This document shows, in pieces, positions 5,903-19,912 of a stretch of DNA of 64,000 nt; positions within the stretch are counted from its first letter, which is position 1, and every line of letters starts with the position of its first letter. The position numbers were made by a program, and so were the translations under genes. The notes under the pieces were generated by a model. That model saw nothing but the letters and a program-made list of their open reading frames with translations. It did not search any database and was not told the origin of the DNA. Source of the stretch: a bacterium (GTDB taxonomy: Bacteria; Patescibacteriota; Minisyncoccia; Phycocordibacterales; UBA1550); the NCBI GenBank assembly GCA_030649835.1, contig JAUSES010000060.1, positions 6,411 through 70,410 of the forward strand. The letters run 5' to 3'.

Positions 5903-6122
5903 CCCGTTAGAGGTAGGAAATTGATCCCGTTAGAAGTGGCGTCACGCTGCGTTACCTCGCGACTTCTAATGGGACAAGTTTCCGTAGTTAATTATTATCT
6001 AATAAGCATACAAACTTTATATTTTATTTACCCGCTAGATTCTCCTCAAAACTGAGTCCCACCCGCCATCACTTGAGCACAACTTTTTGCTGTGTTCTGG
6101 CGAAAGTGGGCGGGGACCTCTA
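5903..6122. repeat. MITE-like element, copy A, with 14-bp perfect terminal inverted repeats 'atcccgttagaggt'/'acctctaacgggat'. It abuts the pyk start codon.
   Basis: About 85 nt at 6040..6127 is an exact reverse complement of 21438..21520. The outer ends also match ('ttcatcccgttagaggtaggaaa' versus its RC at 21596..21622). Confidence 0.6.
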
Positions 6123-6311
6123 ACGGGATTCATTGTCGTGTTTGAATTTGAATTGTAAGAACGTATTATATCAAAATTTTGCATTTTCCCCAAGTTTTGC
6201 TATTATGCATTTTGTATTCTGCGTAGCCGAATCAGCTGATTCACATCTTGGATGAAAGCTTGGCCAAAATCGTGGCAATTCCAATCTGCTATTAGTAGAA
6301 TCAAAACATAT

Positions 6312-6386
6312 TCCGCGGTAGCTCAGTGGTAGAGCAAGCGACTGTTAATCGCTTGGTCGTAGGTTCGATCCCTACCCGCGGAGCCA
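6312..6386 (+). tRNA. tRNA-Asn (anticodon GTT).
   Basis: Manual cloverleaf: acceptor tccgcgg/ccgcgga; D-arm gctc-agtggta-gagc; anticodon stem agcga/tcgct with loop cuGUUaa; T-arm gtagg-ttcgatc-cctac; discriminator G; encoded CCA. Confidence 0.9.
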
Positions 6387-8129
6387 GTTAGGACGAGAGA
6401 GCTCGAAAGGGCTCTTTTGTCGTTTAAGGGCAACGCTATTTCTAGGTTCGAGCGCATCAATAAGTGCTTTTTGCTCTCTCATCTCATTTTCTATCAGTAA
6501 ATATGGATGAAGCTTATCAATAGTGAGTATTTTGTCCTTCAAAATTAGGTTCGAGCCAATCGTAGAAAATATCTCTCTTTTCTTTCGAAGATCCGGTTTA
6601 TTAAATTGATCTCTTGCGAAAGTGCAGAAATTAAACACGCGCTCGGCAATTTCAAGATCACCGTCGAGCTTCTCTTTGGTTCCTCCCATTTGTTTTTCTA
6701 TTGCTGTCCTTTGAGCAATAATCTCTTTTTTCTGCTCTTTGAATTCCTCAGGCGTGTATATTTCGTATTTTGAATTCAGTGGTGAGGAAAATTCTCTACT
6801 TATATTCACGAGCCGTGTCTGACAATCATCGTAAGAGGACTGCAAGGACATGCGAACCGCTTTTTCTTCCCCGCCAGAGTTCTTTTGTTTGTCTTGCAAA
6901 TATTCAAGCGCAAGCTCAAGATATTCTCGATCAATCGTAATATCCCCAAGAATCTTGTCGAACTGTGATTCAAGGTCTTCGAGCTTAATGTATTTTTGAG
7001 AACAGTTTTTATTCTTTTTCTTTGTGCAATGATAATACACATAGTTCAAAACCTTCGGGCTCTCCATGTCTGAAATATCAATCGCACATTTAGGGCACGC
7101 GGTACGATTCACATTAGAAAATTTATACTTGCATGCTGAGCAAATTATCTGATTCTTTTCTTCGGCGGTAATAGTAGAATCACACTCACCGCAACGCATA
7201 AGCCCCGTGAAAGCAAACTCTCGCGTTTGTGGTTGAGGCTTTCCATTTTTCCCAAGAAGAACTTGCGCTCTTTTATATTCTTTTTCTGTAATCATCGCCG
7301 GGTGATTCCCTTTAACCATCTTTACTTCACCCGTATCCGGGTCCGTCCATGGATAATAGCCATAGTAGAAAGTATCCTTAAAAATATTATACATATGGCT
7401 CATTGTCGGCGGATTACCTCCAATTTTTCTATGTTTTAAGGTTGTTAGACCCCATTCGGTAATTGCTATCTCGCGTATTTTTGAAACAGAATAAGTGCCC
7501 GTGAGGAATAGGTCCCACATTTTACGAACGAGCTCAAAACGCTCCGGATCTAGTGCAATAGTTTTATTTCCTTTTTCTGTACCTACATTCAAGTAACCTA
7601 TCGGGCCACCTGAGGGTCTCCATCCACGCATAGCTTTGCTATTTAATCCACGCTTCACATTCTTAGACAAGCGCATCACATAGTCAGTAGCACGCCCTCC
7701 TTCGATACTCATGAGCAATCCAGCATCTTCAGGATAGTAAGAGCGCCCGGGGGTCTTTATGACCTTAATGACTCCCTTCTGAAGCATCCACTGCAACCGT
7801 CCGTTGTCTATGGGGTTTCGAGAAAGACGGTCAATATCCCAACATAAAAGAGCGTTCGCTTCTCCTTTTTCAATTCTGTTTAACACATCATTGAAAATCG
7901 GTCGCCCTGGATCCTTCGCACTTTTTTCTTCAGTGAACGGGTCTCTCGCCAAGCTCAACTGCTCACGCTCTGCAACCTGCTTAAGCGCATTAGTTTGATC
8001 GCCAATAGAAGCAACTTGACGCTGAGAATCCTCAGAGCTCTTGCGACAGTATGCGAAGTACTTTAGCTTTTCATTTTTGTGCATAAAATAATCTACTTGT
8101 ACTATCCATTGTATCATCTTCGTAGCCAT
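6372..8129 (-). CDS. Large serine recombinase (resolvase domain, recombinase domain and zinc ribbon; phage-type integrase). The likely true start is an internal Met near 8084.
   Basis: 'YFAYCRKSSEDSQRQ' is the catalytic Ser motif of serine recombinases. A Cys cluster 'CGECD...CSAC..C' matches a zinc-ribbon insertion domain. The 3' end overlaps tRNA-Asn by 15 nt. Confidence 0.85.
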   Translation of the reverse strand: MATKMIQWIVQVDYFMHKNEKLKYFAYCRKSSEDSQRQVASIGDQTNALKQVAEREQLSLARDPFTEEKSAKDPGRPIFNDVLNRIEKGEANALLCWDIDRLSRNPIDNGRLQWMLQKGVIKVIKTPGRSYYPEDAGLLMSIEGGRATDYVMRLSKNVKRGLNSKAMRGWRPSGGPIGYLNVGTEKGNKTIALDPERFELVRKMWDLFLTGTYSVSKIREIAITEWGLTTLKHRKIGGNPPTMSHMYNIFKDTFYYGYYPWTDPDTGEVKMVKGNHPAMITEKEYKRAQVLLGKNGKPQPQTREFAFTGLMRCGECDSTITAEEKNQIICSACKYKFSNVNRTACPKCAIDISDMESPKVLNYVYYHCTKKKNKNCSQKYIKLEDLESQFDKILGDITIDREYLELALEYLQDKQKNSGGEEKAVRMSLQSSYDDCQTRLVNISREFSSPLNSKYEIYTPEEFKEQKKEIIAQRTAIEKQMGGTKEKLDGDLEIAERVFNFCTFARDQFNKPDLRKKREIFSTIGSNLILKDKILTIDKLHPYLLIENEMREQKALIDALEPRNSVALKRQKSPFELSRPNWLRG

Positions 8130-8364
8130 AAAGCATTGGTCTCAAATTTTGAGTTTCGCACTTTCTTACCAATCTTTTTACACTCATTAATTCCCTGAAT
8201 CTTTCTTTTCCAAATTCACCATGTTGCGCTTTTAACAACTGTTTAACAGATTTTTCACCTTCTTCACCCAAATATAATATTCTACATATTGCACATTCTA
8301 TTATTCCACTTTCATTAACTTTAGGATCATGAGTATGTTTGTCCCCTTCGCAATTTTTGACCAT
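8071..8364 (-). CDS. Hypothetical protein on the island.
   Basis: 97-aa ORF immediately upstream of the recombinase. I recognise no domain. Confidence 0.3.
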   Translation of the reverse strand: MVKNCEGDKHTHDPKVNESGIIECAICRILYLGEEGEKSVKQLLKAQHGEFGKERFRELMSVKRLVRKCETQNLRPMLYGYEDDTMDSTSRLFYAQK

Positions 8365-8542
8365 ATAAAGGTCAATGTCTTCGATTGAATTAATTGCCTT
8401 GATTATATTATTTTCATATGATTCGTACCTATTTTCTTGGTAATTTTCTTAATTAGTAATATACACTTGCCGAGTTACCGCCTTATAGCCAAGAAGACAC
8501 AAAGCTTACTCAGCAAAACGGCAACACATTTATTAACTGCTA

Positions 8543-8935
8543 CTAAAATGGTTCATCTTCATTTATCACTAAGGATTCCTGTGGCTCTTTGGGCATAAAG
8601 CAGAAGTTTTCTTTCCCATGTTTCGCTGTATCAATTTTCCCTTCATTAACTAGTTCCCTGAGAGCGACTTGAACATTCTTTGACCCAGCTACTTTCTTTA
8701 GTATTTCAGTCATTTCTCTCTTGGTTTTTCCGCCATCAGGAAGAATCTCAAGTATTCTCTCTTTTGCTTCCTCTTTTTTGTTTTCTTGGTCCTCAATTGC
8801 TCCACCATAACTAAGAATCGTTTGAACCCCATCGGACCCTTCCTGGTCTTTTATAATCGCCTTGAAGGGGTCTATTTCCTTCGTAAGGCGATTCTTTCGC
8901 TGGTATATGTCTATCTTCTTCTCCTCCTGGCTCAC
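8543..8935 (-). CDS. Hypothetical protein with a probable winged-helix. It may be the C-terminal part of the RepA-like protein after a frameshift.
   Basis: 'TKREMTEILKKVAGSKNVQVALRELVNEGKI' looks like a wHTH. It overlaps the upstream AAA_25 ORF by 125 nt in another frame. Confidence 0.4.
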   Translation of the reverse strand: MSQEEKKIDIYQRKNRLTKEIDPFKAIIKDQEGSDGVQTILSYGGAIEDQENKKEEAKERILEILPDGGKTKREMTEILKKVAGSKNVQVALRELVNEGKIDTAKHGKENFCFMPKEPQESLVINEDEPF

Positions 8936-9647
8936 TCTTCAGCATAAGCAATATTTCCACTGAGGCGGTTTTATCAGTTGAGCCAAACAAAAATTCCTTC
9001 TTTGGAACCTTGCCCTCGAAATTGCTTGGCTTGCGGAAGTGGTCCAAGAATACAACAGCGACACCTTTATCTTTGAGGACTTTGAGGCGGTTGAAGAAAG
9101 TTCTAATTTCATCTGCTTTTTCCTCCTTAATTCCACCCGACACTGCCCTAAAAGTATCTAGAAAAACAACTTTTATTTCGTAATACTCAATAACATTTAG
9201 AAGCCACTGCACCCCTTCGTTCGTATTGAGATTTAATTCTGTATCACTGTAAACTAAAATCTTTTTATTGCTCTCGTCAAAGCCTAGCTGTCTTCCTCTG
9301 CGCTGTGCCTCACTCTGAGACATTTCCATGTCAACATACAGAACATTGGACGCTTCGGTTTTGAACTCCTCGCGTCCAAGAAAATCAATTCCAAGGGCAA
9401 TACATCTAGCCATATCCATCGCAAGCCAGGTTTTCTTTTCTCCTGTAACAGAGGCTAGGATGACAAAACCTTCGCAAGGGATTAGGCCCTGAACCAACCA
9501 CCTTCTCTCTGGGAATTTTTTATTTCCTAGAGTTGTCCAGCTCATCGGCTCAAAGAACGGCTTCTCAATCTCTCTATCAATCTCCCTCATTTCTGAGCTT
9601 TCATTCCTTTCCTCCGCAAACTCCTTAAATGTTTTCTCTTCGTTCAT
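8811..9647 (-). CDS. RecA-like ATPase of the AAA_25 / RepA-like family, a probable mobile-element replication or mobilisation protein.
   Basis: 'GFVILASVTGEKKTWLAMDMARCIALG' is a P-loop of the RepA/AAA_25 type. 'VVFLDTFR' and 'VVFLDHFRK' are Walker B-like strands. Confidence 0.7.
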   Translation of the reverse strand: MNEEKTFKEFAEERNESSEMREIDREIEKPFFEPMSWTTLGNKKFPERRWLVQGLIPCEGFVILASVTGEKKTWLAMDMARCIALGIDFLGREEFKTEASNVLYVDMEMSQSEAQRRGRQLGFDESNKKILVYSDTELNLNTNEGVQWLLNVIEYYEIKVVFLDTFRAVSGGIKEEKADEIRTFFNRLKVLKDKGVAVVFLDHFRKPSNFEGKVPKKEFLFGSTDKTASVEILLMLKSEPGGEEDRHIPAKESPYEGNRPLQGDYKRPGRVRWGSNDS

Positions 9648-9870
9648 AACTTTTAGGCAATGTTATTTTATTAATATCAAGACTGCTTGTCACCGCCCCA
9701 ATAAGGCAAACAAGATTTTCGAAATACTCAAAAGCTTGTGCATCAGAGATGACCGTTTTGTTCTTAGCTTCGTAAAGCTCCTTGAATTTTTTGAGATAAG
9801 TATTTTTATCAACCATAAAATAAAACCCACTATTGAGGACCTGACTTCGCCTAGAAAGTCGGGACCTCAA
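9625..9870 (-). CDS. Hypothetical small protein.
   Basis: 81-aa ORF that heads the minus-strand island operon. Confidence 0.3.
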   Translation of the reverse strand: MRSRLSRRSQVLNSGFYFMVDKNTYLKKFKELYEAKNKTVISDAQAFEYFENLVCLIGAVTSSLDINKITLPKSYERRENI

Positions 9871-9892
9871 TAGTGGGTTCCTCTAGGCGAGC
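9835..9892 (-). terminator. Imperfect 22-bp hairpin followed by a U-tract (minus sense), a probable terminator after ORF 9981..10733.
   Basis: aacccactattgaggacctgac...gtcgggacctcaatagtgggtt is an inverted repeat. It is followed on the minus strand by 'tttattttat'. Confidence 0.5.
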
Positions 9893-9980
9893 GGATATAA
9901 AATATCCTGTGTCTAGCATAAAGAAACCCGTGTTTTTTCAACACGGGTCATGGATGGGTTTATTGTGGGTTACAGATGGG

Positions 9981-10733
9981 TTATTCTACAATTATCCTGA
10001 AACCAACTTTTTCAATATTGTGAAATATATCGGTGTTAACAGCACAGCCTTCAGGTAATATCTGCAAGTCTTCTTTAATTGTTTTAATTATTTGTCCTAT
10101 ATCAGAATATTCTGTTTTATTCAGCGGGAAGCCGAGCGCGTTGCAAAGGTCTTTATAGCTAGCTTGCTTTTCATTGGCATTCAATAATGTTTTCAACACA
10201 TTAAATTTTTGTTGATCTGCTTTAAAATTTACTTTTACTTTTCCAAGAGTTGTATCTCCAGTAATTGTATTGAAGGTAAGTTTATTTTTTCTACCAAGTG
10301 TAATTATACTTGGGTTGACGATTGTGGTTTTAGGTAGTTTCTTATTGAATACGTCGTCACCAGCCTCTTTCAAGAGGTTTAGGTGCTTGCTTGTTTCTGT
10401 GCGAATATTTTTTAGCAGGGTCTGAGATTCCTCACTTTGAATATTGCTGTATTCAATTCCTCCCTTTAAATTAGGAACGCTGTCTGCTTCGTAAAACTTA
10501 TAAAATTCGATATTATCCCTTTTTGCCATAGTGAGGAAATCTTTTATATCTGACTTCCAAATTTGATATCTAGAAAAAACTTCATCAAGTATATTTTTCT
10601 CTGCATATATAGCATCTCCTTCTTGGGCTTGGCGAGTAATATTTATACCCTCCAATATCAAGTCAGAAAATACTCTTTTGAGTTTACTAGGCGCCATGAT
10701 TGTAAATCCTACTCTTTTTTGACATAATGGCAA
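9981..10733 (-). CDS. Hypothetical protein on the island.
   Basis: Clean 250-aa ORF. I recognise no domain. Confidence 0.5.
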   Translation of the reverse strand: MPLCQKRVGFTIMAPSKLKRVFSDLILEGINITRQAQEGDAIYAEKNILDEVFSRYQIWKSDIKDFLTMAKRDNIEFYKFYEADSVPNLKGGIEYSNIQSEESQTLLKNIRTETSKHLNLLKEAGDDVFNKKLPKTTIVNPSIITLGRKNKLTFNTITGDTTLGKVKVNFKADQQKFNVLKTLLNANEKQASYKDLCNALGFPLNKTEYSDIGQIIKTIKEDLQILPEGCAVNTDIFHNIEKVGFRIIVE

Positions 10734-10939
10734 TACAACTGAATAGCAGTCGGCCTAACCCTTAGGAGTTTAAATGCTTAAGGTATGGTTGCGCAAATCC
10801 CATGGAAGGTACTGAACCCCGCGTTCAGCGACTCTTCCATGGGTCATATCGGGAAACTGGTATGTGGACGCAAGTCCTAGCTGGCGCGGGGTTCTGTGTT
10901 TATACCCCACGCTAGCTATATTATTGGCTAGCTATTTTT

Positions 10940-11206
10940 ATGAAAATTAACTCATCTTTATTAATATCAGGAATAACATTAATTATAGGTTTAACATTTA
11001 GTAAAACCGATCTTTTTTTACCTATTTCAGTATTAATTGCAAGTATCATTGGCCTCATTACTAGACAATGGGTTACATCAGACAGACTTGGAAGGGCTAC
11101 TAGGTTGAGCATCTTACTTAAATTCTTTTTATCTCTTATTGGTTTTTATGCAATGATAGGTCAACTCGTATGTATTTGGCTATTAGTAAGGTGGTTTATT
11201 CTATAA
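10940..11206 (+). CDS. Small membrane protein (3 TM helices).
   Basis: Hydrophobic 88-aa ORF. It is the first in a plus-strand run of small ORFs. Confidence 0.4.
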   Translation: MKINSSLLISGITLIIGLTFSKTDLFLPISVLIASIIGLITRQWVTSDRLGRATRLSILLKFFLSLIGFYAMIGQLVCIWLLVRWFIL

Positions 11207-11514
11207 AACATGAAAATATGTCCCAAATAATTACATATAGACACGACAGAGAATATGGATACTGTCATATAAAACTCGACTCTGGAGAAAGAATTCTGTT
11301 ATCAGAGGCGAGTGACTATATAAAAATCTTCAAATTACTTTTTGGTATCATTCCAATAAAAACAATTTGGAAATGGCATAGAACAAACGATCCAAAAGAA
11401 ACCGTACTTAAAATTATGGACAATCATCAAGATACTAGTTTCTTTGATTCATTTGTAAAAGAAATACAAAAATATCGCTCAACCGATGAGATTAAAAATA
11501 AATTCGGTAAATAA
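11170..11514 (+). CDS. Hypothetical protein. The probable start is the Met at 11218.
   Basis: Soluble ORF of 98-114 aa. I recognise no domain. Confidence 0.4.
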   Translation: MYLAISKVVYSIKHENMSQIITYRHDREYGYCHIKLDSGERILLSEASDYIKIFKLLFGIIPIKTIWKWHRTNDPKETVLKIMDNHQDTSFFDSFVKEIQKYRSTDEIKNKFGK

Positions 11515-11523
11515 AATAAATTT

Positions 11524-11835
11524 ATGGACAAAAATTATCAGAAATATTTATCGATAACAGCGGGAATAATGCTCCTCTTGGCTATCCCAGCAATCTGGCC
11601 TTATGGATATTTTCAGATTCTAAGGTGGATTGTTGCTGGAGTGGCCGTGTATAACGCATATTTCGCATACGAACTAAAGAAAAATGAATGGGTGCTTATT
11701 ATGATTGCCGTAGCAATACTATTTAACCCGATAGCTCCAATTTTTCTCCAAAAAGAAACTTGGGTAATTCTAGACCTGGTTGCCTCTGTTTTAATGTTTG
11801 TCTCAATTATAAAATTAAAAACTAAAAAATCATGA
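11524..11835 (+). CDS. Small membrane protein (3 TM helices).
   Basis: Hydrophobic 103-aa ORF. Its end overlaps the next ORF by 4 nt (ATGA). Confidence 0.5.
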   Translation: MDKNYQKYLSITAGIMLLLAIPAIWPYGYFQILRWIVAGVAVYNAYFAYELKKNEWVLIMIAVAILFNPIAPIFLQKETWVILDLVASVLMFVSIIKLKTKKS

Positions 11836-12365
11836 TAGAAAAAATTAAAAACATAGGGTGGACTGGGGCTGGCTTGCTCTTTATTCTATTGGTATTTATT
11901 CTAATAGGCTTTTTGGTGGTGGGAGGAGTTGGTTTTATTGAGAATCATCAAAACCTGATAGAATCAGTAAATAATGTAACTGCGGGTATTTTCGTATTAT
12001 TACTTCTTTTTTCTGTAATACCAAAATTACGAATTTTCACTGGAACTGGGATTGTATTTTTAACATACATCTGGATATTTTTGCTATGGTTAACTTGCTT
12101 AGTTATAACTTACGAATTCTGGGGCCTTATAGGAATCTTTATCGGTGTAATAATGTTTGGTGTGGGTTTATTTATTACCGCCCCTCTTGCTTTACTTTTT
12201 TCAGGCCAAGGGTTTGGCGCACTTCTGTTGCTTCTCTCTATTGGGCTTACTTACCTAATAAGAAATTTGGGGATCTGGATTGTCAGCAAGTATCCAGAGG
12301 CAGGTGTCTCTACTGAGATAAACACAAGCGACATAAATGAAGTAAATGATAAATTTGATAAATAA
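11832..12365 (+). CDS. Membrane protein (4-5 TM helices).
   Basis: 177 aa, very hydrophobic, with an acidic C-terminal tail. Confidence 0.5.
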   Translation: MIEKIKNIGWTGAGLLFILLVFILIGFLVVGGVGFIENHQNLIESVNNVTAGIFVLLLLFSVIPKLRIFTGTGIVFLTYIWIFLLWLTCLVITYEFWGLIGIFIGVIMFGVGLFITAPLALLFSGQGFGALLLLLSIGLTYLIRNLGIWIVSKYPEAGVSTEINTSDINEVNDKFDK

Positions 12366-12389
12366 ATTTTTTATAAAAACATTATTAAT

Positions 12390-12761
12390 ATGAGAATTTG
12401 TATCAAATGCAAAAAAAGAGAAGGTTCTTGGTGGGACCATTTGTGTCAGTATTGTCGCAAGATACCAGTATCTAAACCAGAAGCTCTTGCCTATGAAAAA
12501 TTAAATGAATCTAAAGATATTTTGAGTCAAGATAGGATTGAATATACCGTCAATCTAGAAAAAGCAACTAGTAGTTATTCCTCGAAGTTTGTTAATTTAA
12601 GTAAGGAACTTATTGAGAAGCTAGTAGGATTTTTGTTTCTTGTATTGTTTATGTTTTTAATTTATTTTGTAGCTAGTTGGTTTAAATTTGATACAAATAA
12701 TAATGCTGAAAATTACGAGCCATGCAAAACTTCTGGACACCAACTTTGGCAAGATTGCTGA
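12390..12761 (+). CDS. Zinc-ribbon protein with a C-terminal TM helix.
   Basis: The N-terminus 'CIKCKKREGSWWDHLCQYC' is a CxxC...CxxC motif. A hydrophobic segment follows at 'FLFLVLFMFLIYFVASWF'. Confidence 0.5.
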   Translation: MRICIKCKKREGSWWDHLCQYCRKIPVSKPEALAYEKLNESKDILSQDRIEYTVNLEKATSSYSSKFVNLSKELIEKLVGFLFLVLFMFLIYFVASWFKFDTNNNAENYEPCKTSGHQLWQDC

Positions 12762-12787
12762 TGTAAAAATGAGATATAATTACAAAT

Positions 12788-13069
12788 ATGAATGAAAAAG
12801 AAATATTAAAACTTAATGACGAAGTGCTAAAGATGAACAGTCTTGACTTCGCTAACTTTTTAGAAAAGAAAACGAAAACATACCAAGATGTTGAGCAGAC
12901 AGTATCTCAGGGTGGGGATGTTGCGTTTAAAACTATTCTTGCATTAAAGTATAAGGTATTTATTTTGGAAAACTCCAAGAAGAAACTGATTGTATATTCC
13001 TTCTTACTAACTATAATCATAGTACCTTTAATTATCCAAAGTCTTTCTTTTGTACTTCCAGAAATGTAA
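12788..13069 (+). CDS. Small protein with a C-terminal TM helix.
   Basis: 93-aa ORF. Confidence 0.4.
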   Translation: MNEKEILKLNDEVLKMNSLDFANFLEKKTKTYQDVEQTVSQGGDVAFKTILALKYKVFILENSKKKLIVYSFLLTIIIVPLIIQSLSFVLPEM

Positions 13070-13079
13070 AAATAAATGA

Positions 13080-13277
13080 TTGAGGTATCTTAAAGAAAAT
13101 CAAAATACTATGAAAAAATTAATAGGTCTTATCTCAACAAAAGGCAAGACCTCTGAGCAAGCAAGCAAGGAGGTTACGGACGCTTTCCACAAGTTCAACA
13201 AGATACAAAAGCAGGTTGAAATTGAAATGCGAGAGGAGGAGCTGTCACTCACACCCCAGCACGAGTGTCAGAAATGA
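13080..13277 (+). CDS. Small charged/coiled-coil protein.
   Basis: 65-aa ORF. Confidence 0.3.
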   Translation: MRYLKENQNTMKKLIGLISTKGKTSEQASKEVTDAFHKFNKIQKQVEIEMREEELSLTPQHECQK

Positions 13278-13301
13278 AAATAACAGCGGTAATATAAAAA
13301 T

Positions 13302-14063
13302 ATGCTTGGCGCAATTATTGGTGATTTTGTGGGGTCATACTATGAGTTTAACGCGGTCAAAACAAAAGACTTCGACCTTTTCCCCGTGGGCTCGAAATTT
13401 ACCGACGATACTATTCTTACCCTCGCTACAGCACACGCTATTCTAAATAAAGAAGATTACGGTAAATCTTACAAAAACTTTTTTTGGCAATACCCACTTA
13501 AAAACTACGGCGAGCGATTTTACGCATGGGGCAAAAGAGACGACTCTGAGCCATACAATAGTTTTGGTAACGGGTCTGCGATGAGGGTAGCTCCTGTCGG
13601 GTGGGCTTTCAATATCATTGAGCAGGTTCTTGAGGAGGCAAAGAAGAGCGCTGAAGTGACCCATAATCACCCAGAGGGGATAAAAGGCGCTCAAGCCGTA
13701 GCAAGCGCAATATTCCTCGCAAGAACTGGGGCAAGCAAAAAAACAATCAAGGAATACATAGAATTAAATTTTGAGTACGACCTAGATCGTTCCGTGGATG
13801 AGATACGGGAAACGGCCGTCTTTAACGAGACGTGTATGATAAGCGTTCCCGAGGCGATTATTTGTTTCCTTGATTCTGAATCATTTGAAGATGCCCTACG
13901 AAATGCAGTTTCTCTTGGGGCAGATGCTGACACCCAGGCATGCATCGCCGGAGCAATAGCAGAAGCATTTTACAAAGAGATACCGGATTTTATACGAGAG
14001 GAGGTATTGAAGCGCTTACCTAAGAAATTCCATGGGATGATTGATGAAATACTCACTGCATAA
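13302..14063 (+). CDS. ADP-ribosylglycohydrolase family protein (DraG/ARH-like).
   Basis: N-terminal 'GAIIGDFVGSYYEF', mid 'GNGSAMRVAPVG' and C-terminal 'GADADTQACIAGAIAEAF' match the binuclear-Mg ARH signature. Confidence 0.85.
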   Translation: MLGAIIGDFVGSYYEFNAVKTKDFDLFPVGSKFTDDTILTLATAHAILNKEDYGKSYKNFFWQYPLKNYGERFYAWGKRDDSEPYNSFGNGSAMRVAPVGWAFNIIEQVLEEAKKSAEVTHNHPEGIKGAQAVASAIFLARTGASKKTIKEYIELNFEYDLDRSVDEIRETAVFNETCMISVPEAIICFLDSESFEDALRNAVSLGADADTQACIAGAIAEAFYKEIPDFIREEVLKRLPKKFHGMIDEILTA

Positions 14064-14167
14064 GAAACGCTTCCAAATATCTCCCGTTTCCATGTGCTGA
14101 TTCTGCGCGATCAACCAGAATTCTGTAATTTTTTATTTCCATTTTTTAAATATAAATATGATGTACC

Positions 14168-16561
14168 CTACAGGCGAACTTGCTCTTGTACGTCTAGTTG
14201 AATCAGTTCTTGGAATTCATTCAATGTAATTACTTCCTCTCTAAAATTATCTGAATCAGATAAATCTCTTACCGTTAAAATAAAGGCGTAGGGTTGATTT
14301 TCTAAGTTTTCTTTTCCAAGAATTTTACTTTCATAAGATTGTGTTGCAGACAACTGTAAAAGTACCTCTAGCACAGTAGATGGTACTTTTTTCTTTATTT
14401 TTTTAAAATGAATCACATTGTGATTTGGGTTCCTGTAATGGTCCCATGTTGGAGTCTGGTTTAGAGACAGTGCTTTATTTTTTTCTTCAACCTCACCATT
14501 TTCATCAAGGATTGGGACCAAGAACCGAACTGCTGGTTCAACACTCATCATCTTATATTCTTTTGGGTAATTTTTATCAACGGGAGGGTTATAAGCAAGA
14601 GTGAATATAAACTCTACCTTTTTACCCAAGATACTTTCTGGGAGCTGTATTTGTAATTTGTGTTTCCTCTCAACGTAATTAATCTTATCTGCATACATTA
14701 ATGTTAGTTCATTTTCATTATCCTTTAAAGCAAGCTTGTGGTCGGGGACTCCAAAACCATATGCTCGTTTTATATGGTCATCCTCGATTTTTACTTGTGG
14801 AGCTTTTGCGGTTGAATGAATCAAAAGTGCCTTAACGAGATTAAGTTTATTGTTCTCTAAATCAACATAATCTGATGCTTTCGCTTTCTTTATAAAATCT
14901 AACAAAAACGCACATTATCTAGTGATTAAAGGCGCACTTAGGCTAGTGCCAATGTCTTTGTTGAGGCCATCCTTATTTATGCTCTCAACGCCAAAAACCT
15001 GATTTGAGGATATCATGTGAGCATTTCCATAACCAAAGCTTGGGTCTTTTTTTACATTACCTCCATTAGCAACCAATTCTGGTTTCTTAATATCTTTAGC
15101 GACACTGGAAGTACGCGTAAAAGGGGCTGGGAACCCTTGCTCAACATTTACACAACTAGCGTCAGCCTTACCCGAAATTGAGCCAACTGAAATTACATTA
15201 AGAGCATCACTTGGTGATGCAATAAGAGATTTTTCTTGTTTAAAAATAGTATTGTAATTTTCACTAGCGTAAACTTGATGGTTACCGACAGAACAAACAA
15301 ATATCACATCGTACTCCCTAGCTATATTATCCAAGAATTCGGTCAATTCACTCACGTCGTCTTTGTCTATCGGTTCATTTTCATTAATAGAGAGATTATA
15401 TATTGAAATATCTTCATACCTATTTACAACCTCAGAAATTGCACCCTTTAGTTCATCAAGGGAGACGCATTTTGAATCACTACCATCCAAATACAATACT
15501 TGTATGTCTAGAATATTACATGTTGGAGCAATAGAACCACCCCCTGTTAATTGCATAAAGAAGTTGTCACCAAACAAAATTCGGCTGGCCACAATAGTAC
15601 CGTGGTTCTTGTCCTCGACCTGATGTCGAGACAAATAATTATGGTGATGAGCCCTAAGCTGTTGGAGTATTGGATTATATATACCACTATCAATGAGACC
15701 CACTCTTTCTGCTGTTAGTGGAGCAAGGAGATTCAGTGCCCCAAGATTAATCTCTGGGATACACCTCTGTGAACTCAAAATTGGTTGCTCTCTTATTTTG
15801 CCGATAAAATTAAAATCTGCATCACTTAAAATACCAATAATTTCATTTGCTGTAAGGGTCGCCAAGAATGATATGTTACTAAAAAATAAGTTTATATTTC
15901 TCTTTTTCAATTTTCCACGAAAAACAAGTTGATCGTTCAAAGAATCAAAGAGTGTGTCGTATTTATCTTTGCCAATATTTGGGTAAATCTCAATAATGCA
16001 ATCAATTGTTTGATTTAAAATATTGCCATGAATAAGTGAGTAGATATAATTACTTACCCGGCCCTCAATGATTGTATTACGGTCTGTGACTGCCGACATG
16101 GCATACAATTCACGCAACAGATTCTTGTCTTTTTTTCTTGGTAAATCCTCCCCTGTGAGGGCAGCATCAAATGAGCCGCTATTGCTTATACTAACCAAAC
16201 GGTCAAAATCCTCTATTTTCCCACTAACGATAAATGTTTTGTCGTTTTTAGAACCAACAATTTCAAGCCCCGTCTCATTCCACACATCAGCAGGACTGTT
16301 AGATTTTGAGTTTGCCAGCTCATCTAATTCGACTTCGACATACAGTAATTTCCCGGCAGTTTTTGCTTCCGATTTTATTTTTTTAACAGTTGTATCAATC
16401 TGCCTTACGCGCTTTGAAAACACTCTGGCGTAATGTTCGCGGGTATCATCAGTAATTTTCTTTTCCCAAAACGACTTCCAAAAATCAGAACCTCCTCCAG
16501 GCTTTTTACCTTTATTTATCTTCTTTTTGGGTACAACAATTGAAAAGTTCATATATTTCAT
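14168..16561 (-). pseudogene. ietS: Subtilase (peptidase S8), IetS-like. It is split into ORFs 14915..16561 and 14168..14905 by a single in-frame TAA at 14915..14917.
   Basis: The Asp motif 'VGLIDSGI', the His motif 'NHGTIVASR' and the Ser motif 'GTSLSAPLITR*' are present. The downstream ORF is in the same frame and continues with a subtilase-like C-terminus ('LVKALLIHS', 'AYGFGVPD'). Confidence 0.6.
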
Positions 16562-17661
16562 TTTATATTGTCACGAAGCGTAGTGTACGCAATACCAGAA
16601 ACTTCAGATATGTCAATTAAATTGAAACTGCTATCTTTTAACACTTGCGCAATTTCATAAAGATTCTTTTTGTTAAGCCTCTGTTTTGATGTTAATTGGT
16701 GATTAAAAGAAATAATATGTTTTAAGCAAAAAATATTATCTAAGCTTATACCCTCTATTACCGATGCTCTTTTTATGTTTTGGCATATATCATTAATTAA
16801 AGAACCATTTAAACCAACAGTGACTCTTGCCATTAAATTATAGTCTAATGATTTATTTTTATTAAAATCACTTAAAAACAACTCAAACAATAGAGCCCTC
16901 GATTCCTCTTCTGGGGTATTAATTTCTAACCTTAGCCCGAATCGTCTCCATAGTGCCTTGTCCAACAACTCATCATGATTTGTTGCTCCAATTAGAATTG
17001 AAGTCACTGGGAATAAGTCAATATTTTGAAGTAACACAGTAACTACTCTCTTTAATTCCCCCAACTCCCTTGCATCATCTCGATGTTTAGCTACTGTATC
17101 AATTTCGTCAAAAAAGATGACTACTCGCTCCCTTTTTGCAATTTCAAAAACCTCGCTAATGTTTTTCCCTGTTTTACCTAAATACGATGAGACTAGTTCA
17201 TCTAATTTGACAATAATAAGTGGGAGGTTCAATTTATTCGCAAGAGCATAAGCTAATCTTGTTTTCCCTGTACCAGGTGGTCCATAGAAAAGAATTTTGT
17301 TTATAGGGGAAATATTATTTTTAAGTAACTTATCAAAAGCTTCCCAATGCTTTATAAACTCAATTATGGTTGTCCTTGTATTTGGATTAAGGACAACAGA
17401 ATCTAATTCGATGTTTGAGTAAATTTTTTCAAAAAGAGTATCGTTATTGTTTAGATTTATATTCCTAGAAGTTAACGACTGCCCAGATAAGGAATGCCCC
17501 CTAGACACATCTTTAATCAGATTTGACAATCTTTTGGCAACTAATATTTTTCCGTTAGCTCTTTGTTTTTTTATCTCCTTTTCTAGGACAGAAACAACCT
17601 CCTCGTTTTTACCTGAGGAAAAAGCCTTTACGATATCTTCTACGATATTTATAGTTGCCAT
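16558..17661 (-). CDS. ietA: AAA+ ATPase, IetA-like partner of the subtilase.
   Basis: Walker A 'GPPGTGKT', Walker B 'VIFFDEIDTV' and the classic AAA sensor region are present. Its stop overlaps the start of the S8 gene (ATGA). Confidence 0.8.
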   Translation of the reverse strand: MATINIVEDIVKAFSSGKNEEVVSVLEKEIKKQRANGKILVAKRLSNLIKDVSRGHSLSGQSLTSRNINLNNNDTLFEKIYSNIELDSVVLNPNTRTTIIEFIKHWEAFDKLLKNNISPINKILFYGPPGTGKTRLAYALANKLNLPLIIVKLDELVSSYLGKTGKNISEVFEIAKRERVVIFFDEIDTVAKHRDDARELGELKRVVTVLLQNIDLFPVTSILIGATNHDELLDKALWRRFGLRLEINTPEEESRALLFELFLSDFNKNKSLDYNLMARVTVGLNGSLINDICQNIKRASVIEGISLDNIFCLKHIISFNHQLTSKQRLNKKNLYEIAQVLKDSSFNLIDISEVSGIAYTTLRDNIK

Positions 17662-18041
17662 AAAATCCGTAATTTAAAAAAACCAACTAAATTAATACTC
17701 TTATTGTATCATATTACGAAAATTAATGTAAACCATATTTTCGTAATTATATTTGTACCCCCCTGATGAGCACTCCAAAGAATAGCTAAAAAATATAAAT
17801 GAGTTTTTGAGAATTAATTTTCCCCAAGAGCCTGGGGGTATGGGTATCCCCCCAGGCTCAAAATGGCTCTATGTTCACACAAACTACCCAACGCCGTATT
17901 TTCCATCACACGGGGGCCTACGTCGAGGGGTATGCACACCGCCCCTGCCCTATTGCACTGAGAGATTGGGAACATAAAAATCATCAGATCGAGTGGCTAT
18001 CCAAGTTCTAATAGCCTCGACTGTTCGGAGCAAATTAAAAC

Positions 18042-18066
18042 CCCTCGAAAGAGGGTGTTTTTATTT
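18042..18066 (+). terminator. Short GC hairpin plus T-tract (cccctc-gaaa-gagggtg-ttttt).
   Basis: Stem-loop followed by 'tgtttttatttg' inside the long noncoding tract. Confidence 0.4.
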
Positions 18067-18089
18067 GCTCCGCGGAGTAAAGCGAAGCT

Positions 18090-18460
18090 TTACGGTAGGG
18101 ATCGAACAGCGGAGCGATATTTTGTTAGCAAACAAAATCGCGAGCTGGTGCCCAGACAGAACTTTTTGACGAAAAAGTTTTAGTCGAGGGAGATATCCCT
18201 ATCCGCCCGGTAAGATCGAAGACCTTGAGTATATTTATGATGATGTACTCATCTGAAGAAATACAAAGGTGTACCGTTCCTGTAAGGAAAGATACCCCTA
18301 CCCTTAGGGATCGAACCGAAGACCCACCATTTTGGGAATGAGAGTATTCTCGAAGACCTACAAAATGGATGGTCTCGATCGCATGGAAGGGCGATCATGC
18401 ATACAATCAGCACAGCGACCTGGTAAATCGTGACCACTCCCTACTAGCAGAGTCAGTAAG
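18090..18460. repeat. Array of at least three related structured elements (about 110-150 nt each). Each is framed by 'gtagggatcgaa' ... 'ccctac(ccgc)' and contains paired hairpins.
   Basis: Similar cores occur at 18097, 18209 and 18303. 3' motifs 'gata[ct]ccctaccc' occur at about 18200, 18290 and 18447. Internal stems include 'aactttttg/caaaaagtt' and 'gacccaccattttg/caaaatggatggtc'. Confidence 0.45.
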
Positions 18461-18531
18461 GGCACAATAAAAATACCTATAGATACTTTAAAAGACTAGA
18501 ACTTGTTTTAAAAAAATGGTAATTTGAATTT

Positions 18532-19776: not shown

Positions 19777-19786
19777 TTGTCATGCT

Positions 19787-19912
19787 TCCGCGCGTGTAGG
19801 GATCGAAGGGATTTTCGGTTTACGCTCGTAGCAACGAGTGCCGAAAATCCCCGTTTTCAATTTCAGTGAGTGGCGACGAACTGAAATTGAAAAAGATACC
19901 CCTACCCGCAAA
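19787..19912. repeat. Fourth copy of the structured element family: an outer 'gtaggg/ccctac' stem enclosing two hairpins. It is a possible small RNA or tRNA-derived repeat.
   Basis: tgtagggatcgaa | gggattttcgg..ccgaaaatccc | ttcaatttcag..ctgaaattgaa | gatacccctacccgc. It is homologous in layout to 18097..18205. Confidence 0.4.

Follow-up and report, generated by a model that had tools for sequence, protein, structure and literature searches.

A probable diverged ietAS pair with an interrupted ietS gene on a small integrative element of a Parcubacteria genome

The ietAS module consists of two neighboring genes that code for an AAA+ ATPase (IetA) and an S8 subtilase (IetS). According to later accounts of the work of Yamamoto et al. 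2009 (PMC13069673, PMC8562856), ietAS is a toxin-antitoxin system of the Agrobacterium plasmid pTiC58, and it was shown as an anti-phage system later, as a subsequent study relates of Gao et al. 2020 (10.1101/2022.08.27.505566). IetS is the toxin and IetA the antitoxin; mutated ietA could not be cloned, and the protease activity is required for defense (PMC13069673). Phage resistance has been shown for the homologs of E. coli and B. cereus (10.1101/2022.08.27.505566; 10.1101/2022.08.21.504612), and abortive infection by ietAS is set off by the SPbeta protein YosG (bioRxiv 10.1101/2022.08.27.505566). The founding pair stabilizes pTiC58 (PMC13069673), and the pair sgiAT stabilizes the integrative island SGI1 (PMC5006074). 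In mycoplasma, deletion of the antitoxin alone is lethal, whereas loss of the toxin, or of both genes together, is tolerated (PMC8562856). Toxicity and its neutralization are known only for the members from pTiC58, SGI1, mycoplasma and E. coli (PMC13069673, PMC5006074, PMC8562856), and the mechanism by which ietAS acts against phages is still unknown (PMC13069673). No report of ietAS in CPR bacteria was found in the literature searched.

The window, which is the whole stretch of 64,000 nucleotides that was analyzed, belongs to a Parcubacteria MAG, and the closest named relatives of its pyruvate kinase are found in Candidatus Yonathbacteria, Nomurabacteria and other Patescibacteria (80-86% identity). 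It is quite likely that the window carries a diverged ietAS pair on an integrative element of about 11.4 kb with a large serine recombinase, in which ietS has recently become toxin-null and ietA is intact. The preliminary description had proposed an ietAS-like pair on a tRNA-Asn island, and both open reading frames lie exactly at the coordinates it gave, with the AAA+ motifs in IetA and the catalytic Asp, His and Ser in IetS in place.

The gene ietA (16558..17661, minus strand) is intact and codes for a single-domain AAA+ ATPase of the classical clade with 367 aa, the putative antitoxin or regulator of the pair. It contains the Walker A motif GPPGTGKT, the Walker B motif FFDEID, a YLG pore loop, the sensor-1 motif ATN and the WRRF arginines. 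In 11 aligned IetA sequences, both Walker motifs are kept, as are the pore loop (YLG), sensor-1 and the arginines (RRF), and the alignment showed that these motifs are also common to an IetA-like protein from a Rhizobium plasmid. The generic Pfam AAA model matches IetA with E = 7.5e-32, and the PADLOC IetA model PDLC02196 matches residues 3-365 of 367 with E = 1.1e-92; three more PADLOC IetA models match with 5e-82 to 3e-49. The family-specific PADLOC profile thus spans the whole protein, beyond the AAA core. In NCBIfam, the best match is IteA_antiphage NF042959, with 273.8 bits, below the cut-off of 510 bits, followed by proteasome-activating nucleotidases and FtsH. The closest solved structures are the D2 domain of Cdc48/p97 and VAT (E about 1e-50); no solved structure of IetA or IetS was found in the PDB search. 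A helix-turn-helix was considered for the conserved C-terminal tail of IetA (...YTTLRDNIK), with no Pfam match for the tail of the window's protein; the tails of its relatives gave sub-threshold helix-turn-helix hints in Pfam. A pattern scan placed a sigma-70-like site (TTTACA, 18 nt, TG-TACAAT) at 17703..17732 on the minus strand, some 42 nt before the start codon of ietA. Since promoter-like sites in this region are no more numerous than in shuffled sequence, it is only a candidate promoter for the ietAS operon.

The second gene, ietS, lies on the same strand and codes for an S8 subtilase. It extends over 14168..16561 as the longest open reading frame, which begins MKYMNFS, or over 14168..16552 when it starts at the second ATG (MNFS), where all homologs and the NCBI call begin. 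This choice bears on the overlap between the ietA stop and the ietS start that had been described earlier: the ATGA overlap exists for the longest reading frame only, and from the MNFS start the two genes are separated by about 5 nt. The gene is one frame of 797 codons from the longest start, or about 794 from MNFS, and is interrupted by a single internal stop, a TAA at 14915..14917 (minus strand).

Upstream of this stop, the 5' part of ietS (14918..16552, minus strand; 545 codons from MNFS, 548 from 16561) codes for an alpha/beta region at the N-terminus, extending to about residue 280, and for the larger part of the S8 catalytic domain, including the catalytic Asp, His, Asn and Ser. These residues, D291 (IDSG), H320 (HGT), N427 and S540 (GTS), occupy columns that are invariant in 14 aligned sequences. 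The Pfam Peptidase_S8 model matches residues 287-547 with E = 2.6e-25, covering model positions 6-247 of 288. Downstream, the 3' part (14168..14914, minus strand) codes for the remainder of this domain and for an IetS-specific C-terminal beta-sandwich domain, and is now untranslated, or read only from a TTG at 14905. The PADLOC IetS model PDLC02197 matches the 5' part at profile positions 27-504 of 749 (E = 2e-51) and the 3' part at positions 514-737 (E = 7.7e-20), and the two matches are colinear. In NCBIfam, IteS_antiphage NF042956 is the only family match, with 138.3 and 50.2 bits for the two fragments, the cut-off being 900 bits; the intact homolog P0001 also reaches just 201.4 bits. When a full-length IetS model was compared with the PDB, the matches, at 11-18% identity, were all generic pro-subtilases that bear C-terminal beta domains (Tk-SP, KP-43, EpiP and furin/Kex2). 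Among 1.84 billion cluster representatives, just 46 have the C-terminal domain itself, and in each case it stands at the C-terminal end of a protein of about 750-800 aa.

The family-specific HMMs therefore match both proteins end to end and colinearly, beyond the generic AAA and S8 folds, and the profile searches bear out the proposed ietAS identity. In addition, a clade profile aligned by hhalign with the S8 partner of the Rhizobium plasmid IetA-like gene over residues 66-676, with a probability of 98.2%; this span takes in the N-terminal domain and the beginning of the C-terminal domain, beyond the S8 core. The upstream neighbor of this plasmid IetS-like protein shares 34% identity with IetA across 95% of its length; compared with the proteobacterial and plasmid members, IetA reaches about 34% identity and IetS 29% at most. 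Judged from its sequence, the pair is a diverged subfamily under the NCBIfam equivalog thresholds, which refines the preliminary description. Because both proteins score far below these cut-offs, functional equivalence to ietAS is an extrapolation across about 25-35% identity.

The related loci, denoted here by L numbers, indicate that the pair belongs to a small, diverged ietAS clade that in this analysis was found only in Patescibacteria (CPR); all seven GTDB relatives of IetS come from CPR MAGs. Wherever the upstream region of a related locus was inspected and intact, ietA immediately precedes ietS (9/9: L002-L007, L012, L013 and L016), so the comparison of gene order agrees with ietAS, and L014 and L015 have the same arrangement as L013. 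A large serine recombinase is nearby in L003, L004, L006, L007, L012, L013-L015 and L016. DNA similarity between the window and L002 is limited to 14199..17726, which is the two-gene cassette. A further conserved gene beside the pair, for instance a helicase like that of ietHAS, was seen neither in the window nor at the related loci.

Regulated proteolysis is as a rule carried out by AAA+ ATPases teamed with proteases, and the closeness of IetA to Cdc48/p97 and VAT, and next to proteasome-activating nucleotidases and FtsH, would also fit a housekeeping unfoldase-plus-protease for protein quality control. This explanation is very improbable in view of the sporadic distribution of the pair, illustrated by the rarity of the IetS C-terminal domain, and of its location on low-GC mobile DNA. 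The family-specific defense HMMs are by far the best matches, and only ietA, ietS and the large serine recombinase recur around the relatives, the other flanking genes being different in each locus. Moreover, one copy of the pair is interrupted by a stop and another is disrupted by an IS element, which would not be tolerated for core genes. The pair is thus best read as a diverged ietAS, outside any housekeeping context.

The main biological point of the locus is the nonsense change in ietS. The TAA lies eight codons after the catalytic Ser, in the helix following it, and translation across it reads ...GTSLSAPLITR*CAFLLDF.... At this position, the four closest relatives have a Glu codon, GAA or GAG, and ietS is free of internal stops in all ten related loci. 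In the AlphaFold model of the intact homolog (pLDDT 86.9), a helix formed by residues 540-556 comes right after Ser537, and residue 546 is the counterpart of the stop; the Pfam S8 domain reaches residue 601 in this homolog. The stop would therefore cut a central helix of the S8 fold, by which the IetS effector is almost certainly dead. The change is most likely a single GAA-to-TAA substitution that, judging from the homolog's model, inactivates the protease. An alternative genetic code was considered for this TAA and rejected: TAA ends 23 of the 38 long open reading frames in the window and is the commonest genuine stop.

The nonsense event appears to be recent, creating a toxin-null allele, since no further decay is seen in the 797 codons (no frameshift and no second stop) and the 3' part is conserved as well as the 5' part. 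Identity to the L002 homolog is 76.6% (pN 0.144) downstream of the stop vs 73.2% (pN 0.153) upstream; this check for relaxed selection uses pN only, as synonymous sites are saturated (pS about 0.82) and dN/dS is not computable. The same lack of decay, together with the intact codon in ten of ten related loci, could also mean that the module is really intact, with the TAA being a consensus or sequencing artifact or an allele of a part of the population, so that most cells encode an IetS of 794 aa. Breaks in the assembly graphs near both ends of the island would fit such a heterogeneous population. This reading is considered unlikely. The stop was reproduced in the Logan assembly of run SRR13727527, which agrees with the MAG contig at all 11,632 bases of window 6558..18189 (100% identity), the two being separate assemblies that probably use the same reads. 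A substitution that creates a stop is an atypical assembly error, the NCBI annotation also ends the protein at this position (MDO8604594.1, 545 aa, 'S8 family peptidase'), and inactivating mutations are expected in a gene for a toxic protease.

It can also be asked whether the split gene is still functional, with translation restarting at the TTG at 14905 and two polypeptides assembling into an active or differently regulated protease. This TTG is in frame, 10 nt (four codons) after the stop, and the frame downstream is open for 245 codons. Such a split protease is nevertheless highly improbable, as no Shine-Dalgarno-like sequence precedes the TTG, the break falls inside the buried helix that runs on from the catalytic Ser, and no split homolog was found. 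A truncated, inactive IetS therefore stays the preferred reading.

The pair is carried by an integrative element (~6372..17800, about 11.4 kb) that was delimited using GC content, contig breaks and comparison with L013. The island has a GC content of 36.7% vs 42.6% on both flanks, and the Logan contigs of SRR13727527 break at about 5966-6558 and 18166-18391. The left end is formed by a tRNA-Asn gene (GTT; 6312..6386, plus strand; ARAGORN, Rfam tRNA 72.2 bits), the putative integration target. Next to it lies the integrase of the element (6372..8129, minus strand; 585 aa), in agreement with the tRNA-Asn, integrase-bearing, low-GC island described earlier; it belongs to the large serine recombinases rather than to the tyrosine integrases. 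It contains the Pfam domains Resolvase PF00239, Recombinase PF07508 and Zn_ribbon_recom PF13408 and matches PHROG 95 (integrase) with E = 1.3e-57. The last five codons of the recombinase gene overlap the 3' end of the tRNA-Asn on the opposite strand, and this geometry recurs in L006 (tRNA-Asn) and L013 (tRNA-Ser).

The right end of the element is uncertain, between 17.7 and 18.4 kb; in L013, no more than 350 nt of the element lie upstream of ietA. A search for repeats of the tRNA-Asn 3' end gave no clean att direct repeat, and the right boundary is therefore approximate. This search found matches of 10-17 nt, mostly inverted, with short tRNA-like fragments at 18094-18107, 18288-18317 and 19791-19909 and one exact 16-nt repeat (18288..18303 and 19892..19907). 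No direct repeat was found in the L006 element either. Exact-protein look-ups of both flanking genes returned one sample only, and no relative with an empty site was found by this route.

Between the recombinase and the pair, the element carries a replication-type gene for a RecA/DnaB-like AAA_25 ATPase (8811..9647, minus strand; Pfam AAA_25 E = 8.4e-32). Its PHROG matches are primase, helicase and polymerase families, and the corresponding gene adjoins the recombinase in L013, L014 and L015. A LOOT RNA (Rfam RF03000; 10752..10878, plus strand) scores 73.4 bits vs a gathering score of 46.4, and the family recurs in the related elements L012, L013 and L006 with 74-90 bits. To our knowledge, LOOT RNA has no assigned function. 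Among 20 other open reading frames of the window that were scanned with PADLOC, no other defense genes were found; in the same scan, a DarT partner was sought for the neighboring ADP-ribosylglycohydrolase and none was found.

Tentatively, these CPR elements of about 8-12 kb may form an undescribed family in which four features recur together. The first may be insertion at tRNA 3' ends by a large serine recombinase whose stop overlaps the tRNA, and the second may be a replication-type gene, either AAA_25 or Prim-Pol. An orphan LOOT RNA may be a standing non-coding component, and a CPR-specific ietAS clade may serve as combined addiction and defense cargo. If such a family is real, LOOT would be an RNA for element maintenance or replication control, and the toxin-null allele would show a symbiont with a tiny genome disarming the addiction module of its element.

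In CPR bacteria, the pair could mainly be an addiction module that keeps the element in the chromosome by post-segregational killing, with defense being secondary or absent. Wherever an element could be identified at a related locus, the pair is a standing cargo of this small recombinase element, and often its only recognizable one, and the precedents of pTiC58 and SGI1 (PMC13069673, PMC5006074) point the same way, as does the mycoplasma pair, which is a chromosomal toxin-antitoxin in a minimal genome (PMC8562856). Against this, ietAS homologs from E. coli and Bacillus protect against phages through abortive infection (10.1101/2022.08.27.505566; 10.1101/2022.08.21.504612), addiction and defense are not exclusive, and with its toxin broken the window's pair now serves neither role. 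A mainly addictive role is thus a serious possibility, which we hold to be slightly less probable than its negation.

By analogy with the described members, IetS would act as a cytoplasmic protease toxin that is neutralized by IetA, which appears to need an active ATPase for this. A phage protein could trigger the toxicity of IetS and so lead to abortive infection, and the pair could stabilize plasmids or integrative elements through post-segregational killing. In the window, IetA is predicted to be a hexamer-type classical AAA+ ATPase and IetS a three-domain subtilase. IetA most likely holds IetS in check by engaging or unfolding it at the expense of ATP, as suggested by the intact Ar-Phi-Gly pore loop of IetA, its arginine fingers and its Cdc48/VAT unfoldase relatives. 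This restraint would end upon infection or when the element is lost. In the present genome, the S8 fold would be truncated and the C-terminal domain lost, with the antitoxin gene retained, and the module would be toxin-null, probably neither defending nor addicting any longer.

The finding extends the range of the ietAS family to CPR bacteria. A compact, deeply diverged clade also helps to show which features are truly conserved, namely the pore loop and arginine fingers in IetA and, in IetS, a basic N-terminal tail (residues 1-30) and the motif 'YNPPV' of the C-terminal domain. The natural Glu-to-stop allele offers a ready-made toxin-null control that is one base away from a working gene and in which the antitoxin is retained. 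Knowledge of how the ietAS system works is left unchanged, and the finding is useful rather than surprising.

Compared with the described ietAS systems, the pair in the window has the same ATPase-then-protease order, on one strand and nearly touching, the same combination of a single-domain AAA+ protein of ~370 aa with a subtilase of ~750-800 aa (N-terminal, S8 and C-terminal domains), and the same location on mobile DNA. It differs in its low identity to the proteobacterial and plasmid members (~34% for IetA, <=29% for IetS), its scores below the NCBIfam equivalog cut-offs, its CPR host and the nonsense codon in ietS, and its function is a prediction from sequence. The ietHAS system (Liu-DS4) shares the IetA and IetS core (PMC13069673) but has in addition an SNF2 helicase, whereas the window has the plain two-gene form. 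The likeness to two further systems is one of architecture and role. The sgiAT pair (S026/S025) of SGI1 also combines an AAA-ATPase antitoxin with a subtilase toxin on a chromosomally integrated mobile element; however, SGI1 is a mobilizable island of 43 kb with a tyrosine integrase from Enterobacteria (PMC5006074), whereas the element in the window is ~11 kb long, has a large serine recombinase, with a tRNA 3' end as its target, and belongs to a CPR bacterium. The TA132/133 pair of Mycoplasma mycoides (JCVISYN2_132/133) is similar in architecture and in size (353 aa and 757 aa), and is likewise chromosomal in a reduced genome (PMC8562856). In contrast to the pair in the window, it comes from Mollicutes, is intact and has been functionally validated, and its tolerance to loss of the toxin represents the same route as that taken by the allele described here.

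The two genes of the pair lie co-directionally on the minus strand (14168..17661), with the ATPase gene ietA (16558..17661) upstream of the subtilase gene ietS. The 367-aa product IetA has a single AAA+ domain (Pfam AAA, E = 7.5e-32) with Walker A GPPGTGKT, Walker B FFDEID, sensor-1 ATN, a WRRF arginine pair and an aromatic-hydrophobic-glycine pore loop, SSYLGKTG. In an alignment, the Walker A and B motifs, the pore loop, sensor-1 and the arginines are kept in ten relatives, including a protein from a Rhizobium plasmid. Among solved structures, IetA comes closest to the Cdc48/p97 D2 ring and to archaeal VAT (E about 1e-50), and this kinship makes it a classical-clade AAA protein of the substrate-threading kind. 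The ietS gene, on the minus strand, is one frame interrupted by a single internal TAA; it begins at 16561 or, more probably, at 16552 and ends at 14168. Its S8 catalytic residues D291, H320, N427 and S540 are all in invariant alignment columns. An ATGA overlap between the ietA stop and the ietS start, described previously, is present for the longest ORF only; homologues and NCBI's call start at MNFS..., three codons later, which leaves a spacer of ~5 nt.

The preliminary description had assigned the pair to the ietAS defense system, and this assignment is supported. The PADLOC IetA profile covers IetA residues 3-365 (E = 1.1e-92), and both halves of IetS match the best PADLOC IetS profile colinearly (positions 27-504 and 514-737 of 749, E = 2e-51 and 7.7e-20). 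The top NCBIfam matches are IteA_antiphage for IetA and IteS_antiphage for IetS, the latter being the sole NCBIfam match of IetS. In addition, a profile of IetS from this clade aligns over residues 66-676 (probability 98.2%) with an S8 protein from a Rhizobium plasmid, whose gene comes after an IetA-like gene. This alignment goes beyond the S8 core, including the N-terminal domain and the beginning of the C-terminal domain, and together with the family matches it rules out similarity confined to generic AAA and S8 folds. The NCBIfam scores lie under the cut-offs: 273.8 bits for IetA (cut-off 510) and 138 and 50 bits for the IetS halves (cut-off 900, against which an intact homologue 76% identical to IetS reaches only 201 bits). 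Plasmid-borne members share ~34% identity with IetA and no more than 29% with IetS. The pair represents a diverged ietAS subfamily, hence the unspecific PGAP product names "AAA family ATPase" and "S8 family peptidase". The IetS C-terminal domain of this clade is seldom found, occurring in 46 of 1.84 billion cluster representatives.

The internal TAA of ietS (14915..14917, minus strand), seen in the translation, is premature. A search of 5.8 billion clustered proteins found 21 IetS relatives; every close one (63-76% identity) is an uninterrupted protein of 785-795 aa, and no internal stop was found in ietS in ten related loci. The stop falls in the alignment column of a conserved Glu (LITR-E-CAFLLD), encoded by GAA or GAG in the four nearest loci, and a single G-to-T change would account for it. 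Recoding of TAA was considered and rejected, since TAA is the commonest genuine terminator in the window, ending 23 of 38 long ORFs. An independent Logan assembly of sequencing run SRR13727527 equals the window over 11,632 bases, stop included; it probably shares reads with the MAG. Compared with the homologue in L002, a related locus from another genome, ietS is 76.6% identical 3' of the stop (pN 0.144) and 73.2% identical 5' of it (pN 0.153). Because the sequence after the stop is as well conserved as that before it, the nonsense change is judged very recent. A TTG without a ribosome-binding site is located four codons past the stop.

The effect of the truncation was assessed on an AlphaFold model of P0001, an intact IetS homologue, which is confident (pLDDT 86.9, pTM 0.86) and consists of an N-terminal alpha/beta region (~1-260), the S8 domain (~281-601) and a C-terminal beta-sandwich (615-782). 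In this model, the catalytic Ser537 continues straight into helix 540-556, and the stop maps within this helix, to residue 546. Truncated IetS is therefore predicted to lose most of this buried helix, three more helices of the S8 fold and the entire C-terminal domain, and is very unlikely to fold as an active protease. In ietAS, IetA serves as antitoxin against the toxin IetS (PMC13069673). Given the nonsense change, the window ietAS is most likely a toxin-null remnant that retains its antitoxin. A second decayed copy is present in a Candidatus Saccharimonadia MAG (L008 1..3490), where IS3-family transposase genes stand where ietA would be and the 741-aa ietS product is without about 55 N-terminal residues.

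The pair belongs to an island of ~11.4 kb with a GC content of 36.7%, versus 42.6% on either flank. At its left end, a large serine recombinase of 585 aa (Resolvase, Recombinase and zinc-ribbon domains; PHROG integrase, E = 1.3e-57) is encoded on the strand opposite to a tRNA-Asn gene, whose 3' end is overlapped by the last recombinase codons over 15 nt (6372..6386). The recombinase is followed by a small ORF, an AAA_25 replication-type ATPase, a LOOT RNA, small membrane-protein genes, an ADP-ribosylglycohydrolase, ietS and ietA, the last two at the end opposite the recombinase. Candidates for the right end lie at 17.7-18.4 kb. The left flank, island and right flank are three separate Logan contigs of SRR13727527, with breaks at 5966..6558 and 18166..18391, near both island ends; the cause may be a mixture of cells carrying and lacking the element, or short repeats. 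The LOOT RNA (Rfam RF03000, 10752..10878, plus strand; 73.4 bits, gathering score 46.4) adjoins the replication-type genes, and no function for it was found in the literature searched. The small plus-strand genes between it and the ADP-ribosylglycohydrolase (11524..12365 and neighbours) are mostly membrane-protein-like and, except for one DUF6804, have no Pfam, PHROGs or PADLOC match. The ADP-ribosylglycohydrolase (13302..14063, plus strand; Pfam E = 4.4e-35, PHROG 6572 E = 2.4e-56) closes the cargo operon of the plus strand and is convergent with ietS. A PADLOC scan of its neighbours turned up neither a DarT-like nor any other partner, and it may be an antitoxin-like or anti-defence gene that acts on its own.

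Upstream of ietA, a non-coding, GC-rich (46%) stretch at 17780..18470 has hairpins and a bidirectional terminator-like stem at 18042..18055, with no match in Rfam. Inverted copies of a tRNA T-arm motif (GGGATCGAAC) occur at about 18099, 18307 and, within a further segment at 19780..19910, again at about 19800. Also, a 16-nt exact repeat is shared by 18288..18303 and 19892..19907, the latter copy continuing into CCCTACCCGC, the 3' acceptor strand of tRNA-Asn. These copies and the repeat may be scars of earlier integrations.

Across the related loci, the only recurrent genes are ietA, ietS and the recombinase, which, together with the low-GC recombinase element, rules out a housekeeping context and bears out the mobile setting proposed previously. 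Elements of the same kind are found in the closest relatives (L012, L013-L015 and L016), where the ietA-ietS pair is accompanied by a recombinase, a small ORF and a replication gene of the AAA_25 or Prim-Pol type. With L002, the window shares similar DNA only in the two-gene cassette (14199..17726). The recombinase overlaps a tRNA-Ser gene in L013 by the same 15 nt (L013 13983..13997) and a tRNA-Asn gene in L006 in the same geometry (L006 3805..3846), suggesting that recombinase-proximal sequence of the element serves to rebuild the tRNA 3' end. LOOT RNAs are also present in three other ietAS serine-recombinase elements (L012 8510..8628, L013 9985..10105 and L006 18110..18224; 74-90 bits), in varying orientation to the neighbouring genes, and this RNA thus looks like a standing component of the element family. 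In L002, from a Candidatus Paceibacterota MAG, a group I intron (Rfam RF00028, 64.2 bits; L002 12739..13063) is located ~400 nt downstream of ietS and overlaps or abuts two pieces resembling the 5' and 3' parts of the window tRNA-Asn; this is probably an intron-containing tRNA gene, which ARAGORN does not call. All seven GTDB genomes encoding an IetS relative are CPR MAGs (Paceibacterota, Parcubacteria, Nomurabacteria, Shapirobacteria and Saccharimonadia), and the nearest named relatives of the window pyruvate kinase (80-86% identical) are from Candidatus Yonathbacteria, Nomurabacteria and other Patescibacteria.

[quoted passage not shown] A Bacillus cereus ietAS works through abortive infection, and expression of the SPbeta protein YosG turns it toxic (10.1101/2022.08.27.505566). 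Related pairs have a stabilising effect on pTiC58 and on SGI1, an integrative island (PMC5006074), and in a minimal mycoplasma the antitoxin alone is not deletable (PMC8562856). IetA looks like a competent threading ATPase and probably restrains IetS by engaging or unfolding it at the expense of ATP; if a phage trigger or the loss of the element lifted this restraint, the freed protease would kill the cell or arrest it. One lead is the conserved basic N-terminal tail of IetS: a model of the N-terminal region by itself leaves it disordered (pLDDT <50 at residues 1-20), and in the full-length model it forms short strands (pLDDT about 78), as might be expected of a docking or engagement segment. 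Three features of the locus are of some interest: its CPR host, the toxin gene knocked out naturally by a single base, and the tight tie to tRNA-targeting serine-recombinase mini-elements that also bear LOOT RNA. As its architecture, gene order and family profiles are all those of ietAS, the pair is a new, diverged member of this system and not a new system.
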